This document shows, in pieces, positions 39,112-47,085 of a stretch of 64,000 bases of DNA. This stretch comes from Candidatus Latescibacterota bacterium. Lineage in GTDB: Bacteria > Latescibacterota > UBA2968 > GCA-2709665. The translations under genes and the position numbers were made by a program. Numbering within the stretch: the first letter of the stretch is position 1; each line of letters begins with the position of its first letter. A model generated the notes under the pieces. The model was not told where the DNA came from and ran no database searches. It saw nothing but the letters and a program-made list of their open reading frames with translations. Location of the stretch: assembly GCA_963667175.2 (NCBI GenBank), contig CAXXXF010000016.1, positions 384,001 to 448,000 of the forward strand, in the 5' to 3' direction.

Positions 39112-39759
39112 TTACCGATCCTTTGCGGCCGCCTCCTTCAGCATCTCGACAACCTCGGTCTTGTCGCGATATTCCGCCAGCCAGAGCGCGGTCTTCCCGT
39201 TTCTGGTGACGGCGTCGGCGTCGGCGCCCTCATCCAGCAGGCGGCCCACCACGTCCTTGTGGCCCCCGTAGGCTGCGTAGATCAGCGGTGTCCAGCCCGA
39301 ACGCGCGGAGGCATTCACGTCCGCCCCCGCGGTCAGCAGGACGTGGACCACGCCCGTCAAGCCCGCGTCGGCGGCGAGCATCAGAGGCGTCCGTTGGTTC
39401 AGATCTCTGGCATCCACGACGGCGCCAGCCTCCAGCAGGATCTCGGTGAGCGTGGAATCCTTCTTGATCGCGGCCTCCATCAGCGCCGTCCGGCTATATA
39501 GATCGTCGTTGACGTCGGCGCCTGCGTCGAGCAGAAGCCGCACCACCTCGGGAACCGCCTTCTTCGCGGCCTCGATCAATGGGGTCGTCCCCGCCTTGCC
39601 CTCTTCGTTCGCGTCGGCGCCTTCGTCCAGGAGCTCCTTTACCCCCTTTTCATCTCCCTTTTTGACCATGGCGATCAGATCCGTGTCCTCGGCGGATTTG
39701 CACGCCGAAACCACAAGAAGCGGGACCAGTACCACGAGATTCAACGTACGACTCGCCAT
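39112..39759 (-). CDS. ankyrin-repeat lipoprotein
   Basis: repeated TPL..AA..G....V..LL..GAD.N; lipobox VSAC. Confidence 0.9.
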   Translation of the reverse strand: MASRTLNLVVLVPLLVVSACKSAEDTDLIAMVKKGDEKGVKELLDEGADANEEGKAGTTPLIEAAKKAVPEVVRLLLDAGADVNDDLYSRTALMEAAIKKDSTLTEILLEAGAVVDARDLNQRTPLMLAADAGLTGVVHVLLTAGADVNASARSGWTPLIYAAYGGHKDVVGRLLDEGADADAVTRNGKTALWLAEYRDKTEVVEMLKEAAAKDR

Positions 39760-39983
39760 ACGAACACCGGTTTTCGAACCATGTTTTGCGCTACAAATCC
39801 GCCTTGTGGATAACAACTGAAACAACACGCCCCTCGCCGATCCGCTCTTCAAATGCAATTGTCATTGTACGTCCGGCATCGGGAAGTCTCCAGAATCGCG
39901 AACCCGCCGACCGCCTCTTCGTCCGGAACGACCATTGGACATTCCTGCCGGATCCCGGGTTCCGCCCGGAGTCCGTTCGGCGT

Positions 39984-42081: not shown

Positions 42082-42113
42082 CCGGGCGCCCCCCAAAAGG
42101 GGCGCCCGGCTTT
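42082..42113. terminator. GC-rich bidirectional terminator
   Basis: CCGGGCGCCCC/GGGGCGCCCGG stem between convergent transcripts. Confidence 0.75.
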
Positions 42114-42144: not shown

Positions 42145-43512
42145 CTACTCCATCCGTAATGGCATCACCAGTGCCTTTCGGTCCGGATGGTCTGCCGGTA
42201 CAAAAAGGATGGCCTTCAGCGGGTCCGTAACGAAAACGTCCAGTTCCCCTTCTGCCTCGAGCCCGGAGACCACGTCTCTCAGGAAGGCGTGGTTTACATG
42301 GATCCTGAAGGGGTCAGGACTGTCCTCGATGGAAACATCGCCCTCCACGGTGGTCGAAAACCACCAGTATGGAACTCCAGTCCAGGCCTCATCATCTGTT
42401 GAGACCATGCCGCCGGCCTTTTCCTGCCGGACCTTATAACCCATATCCCGCGACGTGGAAAGAGAGAGCCCGCCGGGCGCTGACGCAATCTGAATCTCGA
42501 CTCGTGGCTGATATTCCCATGTCTCCGACGCCGGGTGTCTGGGTTCCAGGTGCTCGGCGATCAAATCAATTGCTCGCATCAATTCGCCTGCGTCCAGCCT
42601 GACGCGAAGGCCCGCCGCGTCGGGAATAACCGCTTCATAGTTCACGTAGGGCTCGTCGATGATCGAAATAGCCCTTTGAGCTTCTCCTTCCAGGCAGAGA
42701 ATCGCCTCGTCCTCCCCGATCGACAACCTGGCGGGTCCCGTATGTGCCGCGTGCAATTCAAAATCGGGTTCCAGTAGCACTTGTGACTTCAGGTCCTCAG
42801 TCCCCTGGAGCGTGCGCAGCAGCAACCTCACCCCATCGCACGCAACAACGCGCCCGCCAGTGTCCAGACAGACCCCCCGAAGCCGGTTACGGGACTCGTC
42901 GTTACTAACCAGCCGGGTCGCCCAGTGGAGGGCACTGAGATCCTGTGCGGTAAGATCGTAGGTTTCTGCAATTCCTGTCATCTCGCTCATCTCCTTTCGG
43001 ATCCGCTGCCTCGCCTTCTGCAGGCGGCTGCGGACCGTGTTGACTTCCAGTCCCAGCTGATATGCGGTTTCCGCGTAGGAACGCCCTTCGAAATAGTGCT
43101 TTTCGATCACGTCCCGATGCGCTTTCGAAAGCCGGCGAATCGCCTGCCTGATCATCATCCGCGCTTCCCGTTCCGCCCCCGAATCGTCGACCGCAAGTTC
43201 CTCCCATTCCCCGGTCAACAGACGTTCGAAACGAACCTGGACCATTCGCCGGCGGTACCACTTTCGGGCCGTGTTTTCCGCGATTTTCGAAAGCCACGGG
43301 GAAAACCGGCTTTCATCCCGCAGTTGACCCAGACGCCGAAACGCCTGCAGGAATACCTCCTGCGCCAGGTCTTCGGCATCGTCCGGTTGCCTGACGATAC
43401 GGCGGATTCTCGCGAAAACCAGGCCTCCGTGGCGCTCCACGAGGCAGCCGAACGCCCATGTCTGTCCTGAACCTGCAAGCCGGACCAGGTCCCGGTCCTC
43501 AAGTGGTTCCAA
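42145..43512 (-). CDS. ECF sigma-70 factor with C-terminal DNA pol III beta-clamp-like domains
   Basis: sigma2 DAEDLAQEVF...WL..IA.N; sigma4 SYAE.A..LG....TVRSRL..AR; then DESR..L.GV, ACDG.RL, Y.NY..VIP, N..FL.D, MPLR. Confidence 0.8.
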   Translation of the reverse strand: MEPLEDRDLVRLAGSGQTWAFGCLVERHGGLVFARIRRIVRQPDDAEDLAQEVFLQAFRRLGQLRDESRFSPWLSKIAENTARKWYRRRMVQVRFERLLTGEWEELAVDDSGAEREARMMIRQAIRRLSKAHRDVIEKHYFEGRSYAETAYQLGLEVNTVRSRLQKARQRIRKEMSEMTGIAETYDLTAQDLSALHWATRLVSNDESRNRLRGVCLDTGGRVVACDGVRLLLRTLQGTEDLKSQVLLEPDFELHAAHTGPARLSIGEDEAILCLEGEAQRAISIIDEPYVNYEAVIPDAAGLRVRLDAGELMRAIDLIAEHLEPRHPASETWEYQPRVEIQIASAPGGLSLSTSRDMGYKVRQEKAGGMVSTDDEAWTGVPYWWFSTTVEGDVSIEDSPDPFRIHVNHAFLRDVVSGLEAEGELDVFVTDPLKAILFVPADHPDRKALVMPLRME

Positions 43513-43633
43513 ATGACGCCTCCCGGAGGCGGCGGATCGTCACGCACGCGACATGAATACAGATACCCGTTGCGTCGGAAAGTATCCCGCGGAAGGGAAA
43601 AATACCTCCTCGCGTCCGGCCCCCTTTCTTCAC

Positions 43634-43659
43634 AAAAAAAGCCACCCGATACGGGCGGC
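43634..43659 (-). terminator. intrinsic terminator
   Basis: GCCGCCCG-TAT-CGGGTGGC followed by T7 on the minus strand. Confidence 0.75.
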
Positions 43660-43697
43660 AGCTTGCCAGGTGCGCAATGAAGACGAGGCGACGTCCG

Positions 43698-45776
43698 CTA
43701 TAACGTGACCGCGAGGCTGCTGACGGGACCCTTCACGCCGGCGCTGTTGACGGAACGCACCCGCAGGGTGTTCAGTCCGCTGTGCAGTCGCCAGTCGAAG
43801 GCCTCCGGGCTCGGTTTCCATTCATCCCGGTCCACGCTGGACAGAAAACCCGAGAAACAGGGTGTCTGCGTCTCCAGGCTGACCCTCAGCAAGGCCGCGT
43901 TCCGCGTCGTCTCCACCGTGTACCGGGTCTGGTTCATCGTCGGATAGAAGTCCGACCGCCGGTTCGTATGACGCGAGAAGTGCGGCAACGGCGGCACGTT
44001 GTCATCGGCCCAGTTGAGATACCCGTCCCACGCCCAGATCTCCGTGCCCTGACTCACCGGAAGCGGCCGCGGCTGGCTGAACACGTTGCTGCGCGGAATC
44101 ATCCGGAAGTGGCAGAAGGACCGGAACAGAAAGTGCGCGCCGTCGGTGGTGGAAAACTCGTGGCGGCCTTCCCGAATTGCAATCGGCAGGTCGCGGACGA
44201 GGGTTTCCAGGTCCTGCCGGAACAGATACGGACGATCCCAGCGCTCGACGTCCTCGAGCCTGTCCACCAGGACCCGGCGCACCTCGAGCGTATCCAGCGG
44301 CACACGCGTCCCGGGATCGTACCAGTAGAAATCCCGCGTGGCGTCAAGATGGACCCACTTGCCGTAATCGTTCGACCAGACCTCCGCAATCTCGTGCCCG
44401 GTCATGCCTTCGCTGTGAAAGTTCACGTGACGCGCGGGAAAGCCGAAGCTCAGACACGCGGCCACGAGCGCCACGTTCGGATAAAGACACATCTTGTCGC
44501 GCCGGCGTTCCCTGTATCGATTCATCACAATCGACCCCGACTCGTCCCGCTCGAGCACCAGCCAATCCAGGACGTTCCAGGGAAAGTGCCGGCACGCGCC
44601 CAGCGGAACGGCATACGCCCACGCCATCAGGCGCTCGATGGCTTCGAATTCCGTCTGAGCCCCGGCGACAACGGCATCCAGTTCGAACCGTTCGCGCAGT
44701 TCGCGCAAGGTGGCGTGACTGTAGTCTTCGTCCGCGGTCCAGTAAGAAGACCGCCTGATGGCCGGGTTCTCCGCATTGACGATCCGCGGACGCGGGGCGC
44801 CGTCAGGGCGCACCTCCGCCTGAACGCGCATCGTTCTCAGAACAGGAGTGCGCGCCGGGTGGGACGTCTGTAACCGCATCCGCCACTGAAGGTACCGTCC
44901 CAGCAGGCGCGTTACCGGCGACCCGCGTTCACACGACTGCCATTCGCTCCAGCACGCCCCTTTCACAACCGGCCCGGCCCCCGTGCGCACCTCACAGCTC
45001 ACAGCAGTTCCGCCGGGGACGTCCGCGTCCCAGTCCAAACGCAATTCACGAATGGATTTGCGCCGCTTCACGCCTTCGCGTTCGCCCGCGGCATCGATGA
45101 CCGGCGACGTGACAACCCCTTCTTCGCGGTACCCGTCCACGATCAGCCGGATCACGTATTCGCCGCGTTCGGGCGCCCAATCGCCATTTCGGCGCACAAA
45201 ACTCGACGCGGGCAGCACGACCGGGTCCGCCGTCCCCTTTTCAAAGTCCCGGTAATCCGCCACCATCAGGCTCCATCCCACCCTCCCGCCGGCCACGTCG
45301 ACGACCAGATGGTTTTCTCCCTGCCGCAGACATCCCGGCGGAAGTTCCACGTAATACCACCGGCTCCAGCTCCACGCGCCTTCATCGGGCGCCAACTCCC
45401 AGTACTGCCGGGCATCGGGAGTCGCCAGCGGGGACGGCGGCCGCAGCACCTCCCGTCCGTTGACGTTGAATCGCAACGTGGCCGAATGCCCTCTCCGCTC
45501 CCTTGCGACAAAAGCCACCTGTGCCTTCCCGGGAGGACGCTGCGCCAACGTCAGTGTCTTCTTCAGCGCCACCCGGCCGGACAACGCCAGGAACGGATCC
45601 TCGTCCATGTCGTCCGACCTTCCGGCCCCGGGGCTGTCGTTCTCCGCTACCGAACCCTTGAAAAGGCGGATCCCGTCTTCTTCTTCCCCCATCCAGAGAT
45701 CCGTAACGTCCGAGGCGTCGTAGGTCTCTCGCGCGGGAAAGCGGGACTTGACCCGCCTGTATCCGTCTCCAGCCAT
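43698..45776 (-). CDS. large protein with transglutaminase-like domain
   Basis: Cys (KMCLY), His (GHEIAEVW), Asp (WVHLD) triad pattern. Confidence 0.7.
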   Translation of the reverse strand: MAGDGYRRVKSRFPARETYDASDVTDLWMGEEEDGIRLFKGSVAENDSPGAGRSDDMDEDPFLALSGRVALKKTLTLAQRPPGKAQVAFVARERRGHSATLRFNVNGREVLRPPSPLATPDARQYWELAPDEGAWSWSRWYYVELPPGCLRQGENHLVVDVAGGRVGWSLMVADYRDFEKGTADPVVLPASSFVRRNGDWAPERGEYVIRLIVDGYREEGVVTSPVIDAAGEREGVKRRKSIRELRLDWDADVPGGTAVSCEVRTGAGPVVKGACWSEWQSCERGSPVTRLLGRYLQWRMRLQTSHPARTPVLRTMRVQAEVRPDGAPRPRIVNAENPAIRRSSYWTADEDYSHATLRELRERFELDAVVAGAQTEFEAIERLMAWAYAVPLGACRHFPWNVLDWLVLERDESGSIVMNRYRERRRDKMCLYPNVALVAACLSFGFPARHVNFHSEGMTGHEIAEVWSNDYGKWVHLDATRDFYWYDPGTRVPLDTLEVRRVLVDRLEDVERWDRPYLFRQDLETLVRDLPIAIREGRHEFSTTDGAHFLFRSFCHFRMIPRSNVFSQPRPLPVSQGTEIWAWDGYLNWADDNVPPLPHFSRHTNRRSDFYPTMNQTRYTVETTRNAALLRVSLETQTPCFSGFLSSVDRDEWKPSPEAFDWRLHSGLNTLRVRSVNSAGVKGPVSSLAVTL

Positions 45777-45846
45777 CTTCCGGCCTCTGCCGATTCGCAA
45801 GTGCGCCGCGGACGGCGTACCGTATGCGGGGTGGACAGAACACCGC

Positions 45847-47085
45847 CTATTTCAGGTAGGCGGCTTCCACTTTCTCTAAAGCGGCCACAATGTCGGACAC
45901 TTCCCGCTCCCCGTAGTTCTCGTGGACGGGCATCGTAAAATGGCTTTCAGCGGCCTCGACCGCGTTGGGACACGGGAAGGTGGCATTGCGGTCGCCCTTG
46001 TAGTCCGGAAGCCCCCAGGGATAGTCGGTGTTTCCGAAAACCCTGCGTTCCCTGAACCAGGACGCCTCGGACGGGATATGCCTGTAGGACACCGACCCGG
46101 GAATGCCCTCCGCGGCCAGCGCGCGAACGAAACCCGCCTTGTCCACGTTCAGTTTCTCCGTATCCAGGTGGAACCGGAGGAACCAGTACACGCATTCCGT
46201 CCCCGGTGCCTGCCTGCCCATGGAGACGGCCTCCAGATGTTCGATGCCGTCGCGTATCGCATCTCCCGCCTGTCGCCGGTTGTCCGCAATCTCCCCCAGG
46301 CGGCGCAACTGGACACGGCCGATGGCCGCCGCCAGGTCGCTCCCGTTCATATTCAGGCTCGCCCTCACGTTGGAAAGCCCGCTGCCCTCCAGATTGTACG
46401 GTTTGCCCCGATCCGAGAAGCGCTTCACCCGCCAATAGAGATCGTGGTCCTTCGCGAAGATGACCCCGCCCTGGGAACCGGTGGCGTGATGTTTGCCGCT
46501 CATCGTCGAAAACGTCCCCATCGTCCCCATGCTGCCTACCATTCGTCCCCTGTATCTGGCGCCGTGGGCCTGCGCGCAATCTTCGATCACGGGCAGGCCG
46601 CGCGAATCGGCCAGCTCCAGAATCGGGTCCATGTCGGCCGGTTCGCCGGCGATATGCGCCACGATGATCGCCCGCGAATGCTCCGTCAGCACGGCTTCGA
46701 TCTGTTCCGCTCCGGCGTTGAACGTGCCCGGTGCGGCGTCCGCCACCACCGGAACCAGGTTCAGCAACGCCACGGGCATCACGCCTCCGGGATCGGTGAT
46801 TGGTGGCGCCACGACCTCGCCCGGGACCTCCGGTTCGAGGCCTCCCAGCGCCGCGTAGAGAGAGTTGGTACCCGAATTCACGAGGTCGGCGTATCCGCCG
46901 CCCATGAAATCCGCGAAGTCCCGTTCGTACGCCCGCTCCTCCGGGCCATCGTACCCGAACGCGTTGCCCGACCGGATACTTTCGTCGAAGAGCGCCATCA
47001 CGGCCTGTTTCTCTTCCTCCCCGAAAAGGCGCCGCGCGGGCATCGGCACGTTACGGACCTTCTCACCGCCATCGATCGCCAGCAT
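45847..47085 (-). CDS. DegT/DnrJ/EryC1/StrS PLP-dependent aminotransferase
   Basis: NSGT, IEDCAQAHGA, FS....KH...GG. Confidence 0.9.
   Translation of the reverse strand: MLAIDGGEKVRNVPMPARRLFGEEEKQAVMALFDESIRSGNAFGYDGPEERAYERDFADFMGGGYADLVNSGTNSLYAALGGLEPEVPGEVVAPPITDPGGVMPVALLNLVPVVADAAPGTFNAGAEQIEAVLTEHSRAIIVAHIAGEPADMDPILELADSRGLPVIEDCAQAHGARYRGRMVGSMGTMGTFSTMSGKHHATGSQGGVIFAKDHDLYWRVKRFSDRGKPYNLEGSGLSNVRASLNMNGSDLAAAIGRVQLRRLGEIADNRRQAGDAIRDGIEHLEAVSMGRQAPGTECVYWFLRFHLDTEKLNVDKAGFVRALAAEGIPGSVSYRHIPSEASWFRERRVFGNTDYPWGLPDYKGDRNATFPCPNAVEAAESHFTMPVHENYGEREVSDIVAALEKVEAAYLK

Follow-up and report, generated by a model that had tools for sequence, protein, structure and literature searches.

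ECF sigma factors that lack an anti-sigma factor use C-terminal extensions, some of which come from anti-sigma fusion, and in ECF41 the extension contacts a motif in the linker between sigma2 and sigma4 (PMC8999054, in part). This extended class is already known, and the extensions named in part of its literature are SnoaL-like, TPR, WD40-like, Cys-rich and a few others. No beta-clamp extension is named in PMC7826278 (main text and a part of the supplement) or in the main text of PMC8999054; PMC7671368 makes no mention of a clamp-type ECF extension, and literature searches that combined ECF or other sigma factors with the sliding clamp, with DnaN or with Latescibacteria turned up no such fusion. 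Phages provide the other relevant systems: in T4, gp55 and gp33 bind the clamp gp45 (PMC7892883, in part), and in Mu, MuC binds the host clamp via clamp-binding motifs (CBMs), which are carried by the Mor/MuC family (PMC12867686, in part).

The gene described here lies in the window (the whole 64,000-nt stretch of Candidatus Latescibacterota DNA that was analysed). As in the ECFs with a C-terminal extension, a sigma2-sigma4 core is followed by a folded extension with no anti-sigma gene nearby (PMC8999054 and PMC7826278, both in part), and the gene is a solitary one with an ECF-type promoter of its own. It differs from them in that the extension is a beta-clamp II-III module with a replication-derived peptide pocket, and in a conserved internal translation-start signal. 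What it has in common with T4 gp55/gp33/gp45 and Mu MuC is the physical link between a promoter-specificity factor and a motif-binding, clamp-fold protein (PMC7892883 and PMC12867686, both in part). In the phages, the transcription factor has the motif and a separate ring clamp has the pocket, whereas here the sigma factor carries the pocket covalently, a ring is unlikely, and the gene sits on the chromosome, is inherited vertically and shows no trace of a phage origin. With moderate confidence, we read this protein as an ECF sigma factor whose C-terminal regulatory extension is of a new type, built from beta sliding clamp domains II-III, and partly infer its mechanism. A clamp module with an intact partner-binding groove would be a different kind of sensor, suggesting new transcription control; it would show the clamp's peptide-docking surface reused outside DNA replication in a cellular genome, and synthetic biology would gain a compact sigma factor gated by a peptide. 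The system is small, consisting of one gene and one promoter, and is directly testable in a heterologous host.

Gene, surroundings and distribution

42145..43512, minus strand: whole gene, encoding the 455-aa ECF sigma factor plus clamp-like module; a single open frame in 65 genomes
43510-43512, minus strand: TTG start codon (stop codon at 42145-42147)
43519..43524, minus strand: Shine-Dalgarno sequence GGGAGG, 6 nt upstream of the TTG
43641..43659, minus strand: terminator-like hairpin with T-run, ending the upstream 700-aa gene
42082..42109, unstranded: GC-rich hairpin, likely a bidirectional terminator, separating the sigma gene from the convergent nucleotidase gene
43246..43443, minus strand: Sigma-70 region 2 (Sigma70_r2, PF04542), aa 24-89; Pfam, 55.5 bits against a cut-off of 24, E 4.8e-15
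43000..43158, minus strand: Sigma-70 region 4 (Sigma70_r4_2), aa 119-171; Pfam, 49.2 bits against a cut-off of 25.7

Residues 1-178 have the sigma2 plus sigma4 make-up of an ECF sigma factor, with the last sigma4 helix extending to about aa 178 in the structure model. NCBIfam TIGR02937 (sigma70-ECF) matched at 97.1 bits against a cut-off of 42.9, and Pfam returned no region 3 or region 1 match, so that only sigma2 and sigma4 are present, as in the ECF (group 4) sigma-70 family. All matches to NCBIfam equivalog and subfamily models stayed under the models' own cut-offs. The closest solved-structure relatives of the sigma part, which has a pI of 10, were ECF sigma factors. The family conserves the motif VQ[IV]RFE..L..EW in the sigma2-sigma4 linker, with Q92 at least 90% conserved; a conserved motif in this linker is shared with ECF41 (PMC8999054 and PMC7826278, both in part). 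After sigma4 follows a folded C-terminal extension of 277 aa, separated in the model by a linker of about 4 residues. The extended ECF class is marked by a folded extension that exceeds 50 aa beyond sigma4 and by the lack of a nearby anti-sigma gene, and this gene shows both.

The upstream neighbour is a 700-aa transglutaminase-like gene with the terminator-like hairpin at its end, and downstream the second hairpin is followed by a convergent UMPH-1 nucleotidase gene. The sigma-clamp gene is monocistronic, flanked by terminator-like hairpins on both sides, and since the hairpin and T-run terminate the 700-aa gene, it has a promoter of its own. Neither flanking gene at the locus encodes an anti-sigma factor, in agreement with the earlier note, and no neighbour gene families common to the sigma-gene loci were found across the genera of the family.

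The earlier note had allowed for an assembly or frameshift artefact; the fusion is real. A search for the same architecture found it as a single match per genome in 65 of the 168 genomes of the phylum: 17/21, 15/31, 2/3 and 30/76 genomes in four families and 0/36 in ten others, counts which are not independent, as all family sequences come from related uncultured lineages. In 64 of the 65 genomes the match lies in an open frame of 422-510 aa, the remaining one being partial, in a 370-aa frame. Among the database relatives, 36 of 43 are 453-455 aa long, and the sigma domains are present in 29 of 30 long representatives. Moreover, contigs of two other sequencing studies span the junction and most of the gene, with no indel within it. 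A species-genome scan kept 80 loci, of which four carried the module, all labelled Candidatus Latescibacterota; the scan patterns were built from the sigma part, which makes this a poor test of the module's range.

Promoter and candidate targets

43582..43587, minus strand: -35-like box GGATAC (then TTT) of a putative autoregulated ECF-type promoter
43561..43566, minus strand: -10-like box GTATCT, 15 nt past the -35 box (variants GCATCT, GCGTCA, TCGTCT, GCAACT)

The elements expected of an ECF-type promoter (a GGAAC-like -35 box, a spacer of about 16 nt and a CGT-like -10 box) stand before the gene itself. In 23 of 32 loci, the strict pattern GGATAC[CT][TC]-N13-15-[CGT][AG][TA]C[TA] stood at a constant distance from the gene. 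Within the window's genus, 14 of 15 genomes conserve the promoter, also written GGATAC-N15-G[CTG][AG][TA]C[TA], and both boxes are fixed while the spacer varies. Of the autoregulated promoter GGATAC...GTATCT suggested in the earlier note, the two boxes hold at their place and are conserved, whereas the palindrome is not. Judged from this sequence pattern, the sigma factor probably drives its own gene. A look for RNA sequencing runs that contain the sequence found none, an outcome that is neutral on autoregulation.

Searching the window's own genome for GGATAC-N16-17-ATCT gave 19 matches against about 21 estimated by chance and no other such promoter; among these loose matches, the TTT was present only at the sigma gene's own promoter. 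A relaxed scan of the same genome listed 22 sites, mostly 5' of spurious ORFs; one of them, at window position 46974 (plus strand), was rejected as antisense within a minus-strand operon. Across the 15 genomes of the genus, the promoter pattern matched 50 times against 4 for the reversed control. Besides the own promoter, two recurrent sites that were examined fall in open frames and were read as coding, as was a third, where variation is mainly at every third base, and no regulon was found in these 15 genomes. In another genus (g11), 16 of 21 genomes have exactly one promoter match, and in those that also have a sigma-clamp gene match this single site lies just upstream of the sigma gene. The sole candidate target, found in the distant genus g25, encodes a secreted DUF5916/CBM9 protein, has a duplicated copy of the promoter in front of it and is not a replication or repair gene.

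Fold and partner-binding pocket of the clamp-like module

42637..42975, minus strand: clamp domain II-like part, aa 180 to about 292; hhalign, pocket alignment and structure match
42148..42636, minus strand: clamp domain III-like part, aa about 293-455; hhalign, pocket alignment and structure match

Residues 180-455 fold like domains II-III of the bacterial beta sliding clamp. Profile-profile comparison of the C-terminal family with DnaN by hhalign placed aa 180-454 on E. coli DnaN 123-366 (Prob 100, E 4.9e-47), and Foldseek with the full-length model gave only beta clamps among the matches listed, the best being 4tsz_A (E 5.2e-14). These are the comparisons which the earlier note had proposed for aa 176-455, and they returned the clamp fold. 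The structure model of the C-domain only (pLDDT 92, pTM 0.90) was aligned best by VIA-align to 7evp_B 130-377 (Z 24.3, rmsd 2.5, 237 aligned); it matched beta clamps at Z 24.3-17.8 over chain residues of about 120-377, PCNA at Z 16-17 and gp45 at Z 13.9. Together with the Pfam and TIGR02937 matches of the sigma part, this bears out the proposed union of an ECF sigma factor with clamp domains II-III. All of the beta-clamp motifs that had been pointed out were recovered within aa 205-455, namely DESRNRLRGV (205-214), ACDGVRL (224-230), YVNYEAVIP (289-297), NHAFLRD (407-413) and the C-terminal MPLRME (450-455).

The module thus shares with DnaN the fold of domains II and III, the motif order, the pocket residues of subsites I and II and the C-terminal MP.R tail. 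It differs from DnaN in much of what makes a ring. Domain I is missing, the sigma part standing in its place, so that the three-domain organisation of DnaN is incomplete. The interface is replaced by the family-specific motifs EPRHP (323-327) and SRDMGY...PYW (354-383) in the domain III-like part, which has an insert of about 28 aa. With the E. coli pocket and interface residues taken from PMC11139829 (in part), the dimer-interface residues I272/L273 correspond to E/P and H in 52 family sequences, and the five positions of the acidic interface E298-E304 are for the most part W, Y, T and T at four and, at the E301 position, most often R, with E in 11/52. The interface positions read overall E/P, H, W, Y/D, R/E, T/S and T in the 52 sequences, which are not the ring-closing residues of DnaN. 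In the model and the alignment, an acidic loop (248-260) takes the place of the second inner helix of domain II, one of the four inner helices. The three remaining long inner helices carry one K/R each, which does not make the basic channel of DnaN, and the module as a whole has 25 K+R against 48 D+E (pI 4.6). It is fused to a sigma factor, and the genome has one ordinary dnaN elsewhere. The losses of domain I, of an inner helix and of the interface that closes the ring, together with the acidity of the module, make it unlikely that it forms a ring around DNA.

A true clamp might still be built if the two-domain module trimerised like PCNA or gp45, perhaps with fused and free isoforms mixed, encircled DNA and tethered RNA polymerase for a one-dimensional promoter search. 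The two-domain protomer has the PCNA/gp45 format, as its Z-scores reflect, the removal of domain I exposes an edge of domain II that needs cover, a free isoform would ease crowding in a mixed ring, and T4 offers a functional precedent (PMC7892883, in part). However, the module is nearer to DnaN II-III than to PCNA in sequence and structure, its inner-face features are not kept, and the absent ring-closing residues, the acidic loop in place of an inner helix, the single K/R on each of the others and the low pI leave this proposal scarcely credible.

The pocket, in comparison, has been retained. Pocket residues of clamps are conserved owing to partner binding (PMC11139829, in part). In the domain II-like part, R208, L211, C225, G227, R229, L230 and V290 correspond to E. 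coli R152, L155, T172, G174, R176, L177 and P242, and the domain III-like part contributes V295, N407, F410, L448, M450, P451, L452 and R453. Residue by residue over the 52 family sequences, the E. coli identity is kept at R152 in 46, L155 in 42, G174 in 46, R176 in 43, L177 in 44, V247 in 43, N320 in 47, M362 in 48, P363 in 50 and R365 in 37, which upholds the suggestion that the partner-binding pocket survives. Thirteen of 18 distinct pocket positions have the E. coli or a closely similar residue in at least 42 of the 52 sequences, and the conservation is similar to that in 19 control DnaN sequences; departures from DnaN include H175, replaced by A, R or V in 35/52, and P242, replaced by V in 34/52. 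By its sequence, the module keeps the hydrophobic CBM pocket that lies between domains II and III, with subsites I and II.

As the pocket is conserved as in DnaN, the cell's own natural CBMs are the simplest candidate ligands. The pocket could accordingly sense the cell's clamp-binding proteins (polymerases, Hda, MutS/L, clamp-loader delta) or clamp-targeting antibiotics and toxins, with the sigma factor reporting replication stress or clamp attack. The pocket positions conserved to the same degree as in true DnaN fit such a role, and with an ordinary dnaN present separately, the cell can do without the module as a clamp; 7evp_B, the best structural match, is a clamp bound by a phage inhibitor, which shows only that such inhibitors exist. 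On the other hand, the sigma gene has no replication or repair gene linked to it, the only candidate target (in g25) is the secreted DUF5916/CBM9 protein, and the H175 and P242 substitutions imply that specificity may differ from that of DnaN, so that we regard this sensing as improbable. For the ligands of the earlier note (replisome clamp-binding peptides, clamp-targeting antibiotics or toxins), neither a conserved neighbour nor a regulon in the own genus gives support, and the link to replication stress was not found. What that note observed is therefore confirmed, and what it made of the observation is supported in part, these ligands and replication stress excepted.

It is also quite unlikely that the module is a passive scaffold which only stabilises the sigma factor or RNA polymerase binding, with the pocket conserved for folding and having no ligand. 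Parts of the ECF41 and ECF42 extensions are indeed needed simply for the active conformation (PMC8999054, in part), and no ligand was found in this analysis. Yet the surface pocket residues R208, R229, N407, R453, M450 and P451 are conserved at 26-40% overall identity, and the former dimer interface changed completely while the pocket was kept, a pattern produced by selection on a binding site.

Possible contact with the sigma core and putative internal start

In the mechanism we prefer, the module would not encircle DNA and would serve as a built-in partner or sensor domain instead of a separate anti-sigma factor. It would touch the sigma core via the remodelled edge bearing EPRHP and SRDMGY..W; its pocket would bind a short linear peptide of some partner, a CBM-like ligand, and peptide binding would shift the sigma factor between inactive and active states. 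Such a mode would belong to the 'activated by protein interaction' class of ECF extensions, and the one-component ECF envisaged in the earlier note fits the class of ECFs with regulatory C-terminal extensions (PMC8999054, in part). A peptide acting in cis is not evident, as no canonical CBM is conserved in the sigma part, where only 4 of 46 sequences have a match, within the folded helix-turn-helix.

Complex prediction for the sigma core and the module scored 0.32 (runs 0.30, 0.45 and 0.32), whereas the best of 3 controls scored 0.00. Of 157 solved complexes, 116 attained the mark applied, as did 2 of 215 mismatched pairs; at 0.60 or under, only 18 of the 157 solved complexes attained it, plus both passing mismatches. 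At least 51% of the contacts agree between runs, with a partner pLDDT of at least 80. The models thus point weakly to a contact between the sigma core and the module. Since the full-length model has a pTM of 0.59, the placement of the module relative to the sigma core is not confidently predicted.

In the holoenzyme, the position after sigma4 is on the upstream side, where activators act. The pocket module comes directly after sigma4, with a modelled linker of about 4 residues, and might therefore bring a CBM-bearing enzyme or activator to the promoters of the sigma factor, as in T4 and Mu, where links between clamp and transcription exist (PMC7892883 and PMC12867686, both in part). Against such recruitment, no linked gene encodes a CBM-bearing partner, the lack of an anti-sigma factor would be left unexplained, and a free isoform would compete; we give it little credence.

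A free isoform is suggested by a feature of the domain junction which the earlier note had overlooked, a conserved internal ribosome-binding site followed by an ATG:

42991..42996, minus strand: internal Shine-Dalgarno-like AAGGAG, codons K173-E174
42979..42981, minus strand: putative internal start codon (ATG, Met178) of a free clamp-like protein of 278 aa

In each of the 32 family genes that were examined, the junction carries [AG]AGG[AG]G, 9-11 nt and an in-frame ATG, and in 28 of them the junction is the sole in-frame site of this Shine-Dalgarno plus ATG type. Codon usage in the 32 genes is GAG in only 55% and AAG in only 50%. Moreover, in one genus the junction AAGGAG stands in a different codon register (AAA GGA GAG), and at one locus (L104) the Glu is lost from the junction (K-G-A) with AAGGAG retained. 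Met is present at the junction in 46 of 46 proteins. The residues E-hydrophobic-x-x-M are conserved as amino acids too, and part of the nucleotide signal could for this reason be structural. The sequence signal suggests a second product from the same mRNA, the free 278-aa clamp-like module, and hence a sigma factor and its regulator readable from one reading frame.

In the preferred mechanism, the free module might titrate away the ligand or target the sigma core in trans, a feedback resembling that of a co-transcribed anti-sigma factor; a search of the literature on internal translation in ECF systems found nothing relevant. A more specific two-isoform switch, in which free CBM proteins hold or release the sigma factor, RNA polymerase reads the replisome or repair state, and the 278-aa isoform is a decoy or an anti-sigma factor in trans, seems to us a long shot; if true, sigma-factor control through a clamp fold would have its first cellular, non-phage case.

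Database entries of 270-290 aa starting at the junction Met were considered as separate clamp-like genes. Two of them, P0046 and P0055, were rejected: both come from contigs no longer than 1.3 kb and fall in the same 90% clusters as members of 466 and 449 aa, and are therefore taken as truncated gene calls. P0068 (a zinc ribbon plus the module) and P0085 (the module plus a SEC-C tail) may be real variants.

Domain composition and distribution of the fused protein

42145..43512, minus strand: fused sigma-clamp ORF of 455 aa, TTG start, GGGAGG 6 bases 5' of the start
43698-45800, minus strand: upstream neighbour, a 700-aa protein that resembles a transglutaminase core only weakly (E 5.4e-5) and is uncharacterised apart from that

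Residues 1-178 of the 455-aa protein make up its ECF sigma factor part, in which the Pfam domains Sigma70_r2 (aa 24-89) and Sigma70_r4_2 (aa 119-171) both scored well over cut-off. The NCBIfam superfamily model TIGR02937 scored 97.1 bits (cut-off 42.9), the narrower NCBIfam models all remained under theirs, and the best solved relatives by sequence in the PDB search were ECF sigmas. The linker motif VQ[IV]RFE..L..EW is conserved in the family, with Q92 at least 90% conserved (46 sequences). A terminator-like hairpin lies at the 3' end of the upstream transglutaminase-like gene and a GC-rich one between the sigma gene and the convergent UMPH-1 nucleotidase gene; with hairpins on both sides, the sigma gene is, from its layout, predicted to be monocistronic. 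As the earlier note had it, there is no adjacent anti-sigma gene: the neighbours are these two genes, and none was found nearby.

The five clamp motifs noted earlier were all found in the protein, in the same order and places. In a single-sequence PDB search, residues 191-319 matched the DnaN of Deinococcus (4trt_A, chain 132-265) at E 3.9e-5, with weaker matches to several clamps over their last 60 residues. Moreover, in a profile-profile comparison of 52 family C-terminal domains with 19 DnaN sequences, residues 180-454 aligned with domains II and III of E. coli DnaN (123-366; Prob 100, E 4.9e-47). The full-length AlphaFold model (pLDDT 85, pTM 0.59) retrieved only beta clamps among the Foldseek matches listed, the best being 4tsz_A at E 5.2e-14 over about 285 columns, so that profile and Foldseek both confirmed the DnaN-like fold proposed for aa 176-455. 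Modelled alone from Met178, the C-terminal domain was confidently predicted (pLDDT 92, pTM 0.90), and an independent structure search gave Z of 24.3 to 17.8 for beta clamps (7evp_B: rmsd 2.5 Å, 237 aligned, chain 130-377), 16-17 for PCNA and 13.9 for T4 gp45. The window's genome has one ordinary dnaN, on a different contig; its product is no more than a distant relative of the fused module (35% identity over 115 residues, E 0.0098).

The sigma-clamp fusion is real and old. Among 43 database relatives of the C-terminal domain, 36 have a length of 453-455 aa, and precomputed sigma domains are present in 38. An exhaustive profile-free search returned 111 proteins at E <= 0.001, 51 of them at <= 1e-10, including many of 400-494 aa at 26-40% identity and then ordinary DnaNs; of the 30 long proteins scanned, 29 had the domains of both sigma regions, 2 and 4. 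The module was detected in 65 of 168 whole genomes of the window's phylum (15/52 among high-quality genomes), always as exactly one copy (65/65), and its distribution by family was 17/21, 15/31, 2/3 and 30/76, with 0/36 across ten other families. The carriers are Candidatus Latescibacterota in named records, some under the NCBI labels Gemmatimonadota or Handelsmanbacteria. An assembly or frameshift artefact, which the earlier note had named as a possible refutation, is ruled out: the frame is open over 422-510 aa for 64 of the 65 genome matches (the remaining one is a partial match with a 370-aa frame), and contigs from other sequencing studies, spanning 42212-43565 and 42260-43799, have indels only at 43620-43634, which is intergenic. 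Two database proteins may be real variants with the same clamp-like module in another setting: P0068 (324 aa), where a zinc ribbon at the N-terminus replaces the sigma factor, and P0085 (348 aa) with a C-terminal SEC-C motif tail.

Pocket and ring edge of the clamp-like module

The pocket residues of the E. coli clamp, as listed in part of a review (PMC11139829), were transferred to 52 family sequences via the profile alignment.

Pocket residues of the E. coli clamp and their counterparts in the fused protein and in the family (52 sequences)
E. coli; fused protein; family
R152; R208; R in 46/52
L155; L211; L in 42/52
T172; C225; T 30, C 12, S 6 of 52
G174; G227; G in 46/52
R176; R229; R in 43/52
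L177; L230; L in 44/52
V247; V295; V in 43/52
N320; N407; N in 47/52
Y323; F410; Y 26, F 20 of 52
M362; M450; M in 48/52
P363; P451; P in 50/52
R365; R453; R in 37/52

By these counts the family pocket is as well kept as in the DnaN control set. Two pocket positions differ from DnaN, namely H175 (A, R, H or V) and P242 (V in 34/52). The ring-closing I272/L273 of DnaN are replaced by E/P and H. In the acidic interface E298-E304, W, Y, T and T prevail at four of the five positions, and R is the most frequent residue at the remaining one, E301 (E in 11/52). The former interface edge now bears the strongly conserved family motifs EPRHP (323-327) and SRDMGY...PYW (354-383), the latter lying in an insertion some 28 residues long. 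Domain I of the clamp is absent, domain II has an acidic loop (248-260) in place of its second inner helix, and the module is acidic as a whole (25 K+R vs 48 D+E, pI 4.6; sigma part pI 10), which together argue against a DNA channel. The module thus looks like a peptide-docking unit with a second, new interaction surface rather than a DNA-encircling ring. Its identity as a DnaN proper was rejected, since the three defining features tested were lacking.

Promoter and domain-junction signals of the sigma gene

The sequence GGATAC...GTATCT (43561-43587), proposed earlier as an autoregulated promoter, stood up as two conserved boxes with fixed spacing and a variable spacer; its palindromic look is not conserved. 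Of 15 genomes of the window's genus, 14 have the consensus GGATACTTT-N14-ATCT(G/T)TATT 5' of the sigma gene. In distant family members GGATAC(C/T)T is kept, the spacing is unchanged and the -10 box reads GCATCT, GCGTCA or GCAACT; one genus has CGACACTTT...TCGTCT instead. The strict pattern occurs at 23 of 32 loci, and its distance to the coding region does not vary. Judged by sequence, the boxes are laid out as in a typical ECF promoter; such a promoter 5' of the factor's own gene suggests positive autoregulation. The one genus genome lacking it (G058, locus L091) has a different, AT-richer upstream region, suggestive of rearrangement. In two g11 genomes (G077 and G085; loci L184 and L190), the g11-type promoter motif is present with no C-terminal domain match at E <= 1e-10; the sigma-clamp gene may be diverged or disrupted there.

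Where sigma region 4 joins the module, the window's sequence is AAGGAG ATGAGCGAG ATG, corresponding to K173 E174 ... M178. The arrangement [AG]AGG[AG]G, 9-11 bases and an in-frame ATG was found at the junction of all 32 family genes for which DNA was available (C-terminal domain identity 29-100%), being the sole such in-frame site of the gene in 28 of them, and the junction Met is present in 46/46 aligned family proteins. Usage of GAG is 55% and that of AAG 50% in the 32 genes, too low for codon bias to account for the constancy of the hexamer. In one genus the hexamer is shifted to another codon register (AAA GGA GAG, K-G-E), and at locus L104 Glu is replaced by Ala with AAGGAG still kept. 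A second translation start yielding a free 278-aa module is, on this pattern, rather probable. The signal might also be conserved for purely structural reasons, with which the conservation of E-hydrophobic-x-x-M as amino acids agrees. Gene calls on truncated contigs begin at the junction Met, which accounts for apparent stand-alone clamp-like proteins; separate genes for these were rejected, as both proteins checked share clusters with full-length fused members.

Proposed mode of action and candidate regulon

The protein is an ECF family member that probably works like ECF sigmas with regulatory extensions, and its type of extension appears to be new. In ECF sigmas lacking an anti-sigma factor, C-terminal extensions, some derived from fusion with an anti-sigma factor, commonly take over regulation by conformational change, protein interaction or proteolysis, and in ECF41 the extension touches a conserved linker motif (parts of PMC8999054 and PMC7826278). 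The fused protein fits this class and, like ECF41, has its own conserved linker motif. No clamp-type extension is mentioned in the literature and ECF classification papers covered, which include part of the PMC7826278 supplement. Transcription factors are linked to clamps in the phages T4 and Mu, but there the roles are reversed and the ring is a real one (parts of PMC7892883 and PMC12867686). The combination of sigma and clamp domains would surprise sigma-factor and replication specialists alike; the conserved pocket gives a sharp, bench-testable hypothesis, and the putative internal start is a second unusual feature.

Complex prediction of the sigma core (1-178) with the module (179-455) hints at a contact between the two parts, with a score of 0.32 (runs 0.30, 0.45 and 0.32; best of three controls 0.00). 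Among solved complexes 116 of 157 reached that mark, among mismatched pairs 2 of 215; at 0.60 or under it was reached by only 18 of the 157 plus both passing mismatches. At least 51% of contacts agreed between runs and the partner pLDDT was at least 80. From the observed anatomy of the protein, we infer its contacts, ligand and direction of effect as follows. The acidic module would rest on the basic sigma core via the remodelled edge, and its pocket would take a short peptide of a partner, whereby the sigma factor is switched on or off. A free isoform from the autoregulated transcript could provide feedback like a co-transcribed anti-sigma factor.

The canonical clamp-binding motif is not conserved in the sigma part (4/46 sequences match, inside the helix-turn-helix), no conserved neighbour gene was found across the family, and searches for a regulon identified none in the window's genus or in g11. 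In the genus g25, 6 of 21 genomes (G124, G125, G126, G139, G142 and G144) have seven further sites, GGATACCTTT..CTAAAAGCAACT, which repeat part of the sigma promoter (loci L153, L163, L167, L168, L169, L171 and L173). Two of the seven include the first sigma codons, a conserved long leader follows the site, and the duplicate lies 35-57 kb from the sigma gene in the three genomes with both sites on one contig. At four of the seven loci the same secreted protein, with the Pfam domains DUF5916 and CBM9_1, starts within 200 nt of the site; no homologue was found in the window's genome. This gene is a likely g25 regulon member arisen by promoter duplication, and it hints at the cell envelope rather than at replication, contrary to the link to replication stress suggested earlier. 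In the window's own genome, an identical 28-nt sequence, GGATACCTCCAGATACCCAGGTCCAACT, occurs twice (contigs C2:258239, plus strand, and C14:379720, minus strand), probably as part of a repeated, possibly mobile, element unrelated to the sigma promoter.

Elsewhere in the window, one further gene was recorded.

39112-39858, minus strand: 248-aa protein with ankyrin repeats (Ank_2, E 7e-41)

Its N-terminal hydrophobic stretch ends in Cys, possibly a lipoprotein signal. Metagenome runs of sponge, coral and marine origin, from at least five studies, contained between 20 and 42% of sampled words of this DNA. Contigs were 90-99% alike in three of four runs and at least 99% in the fourth (X1), whose contigs may derive from the same source as the window.
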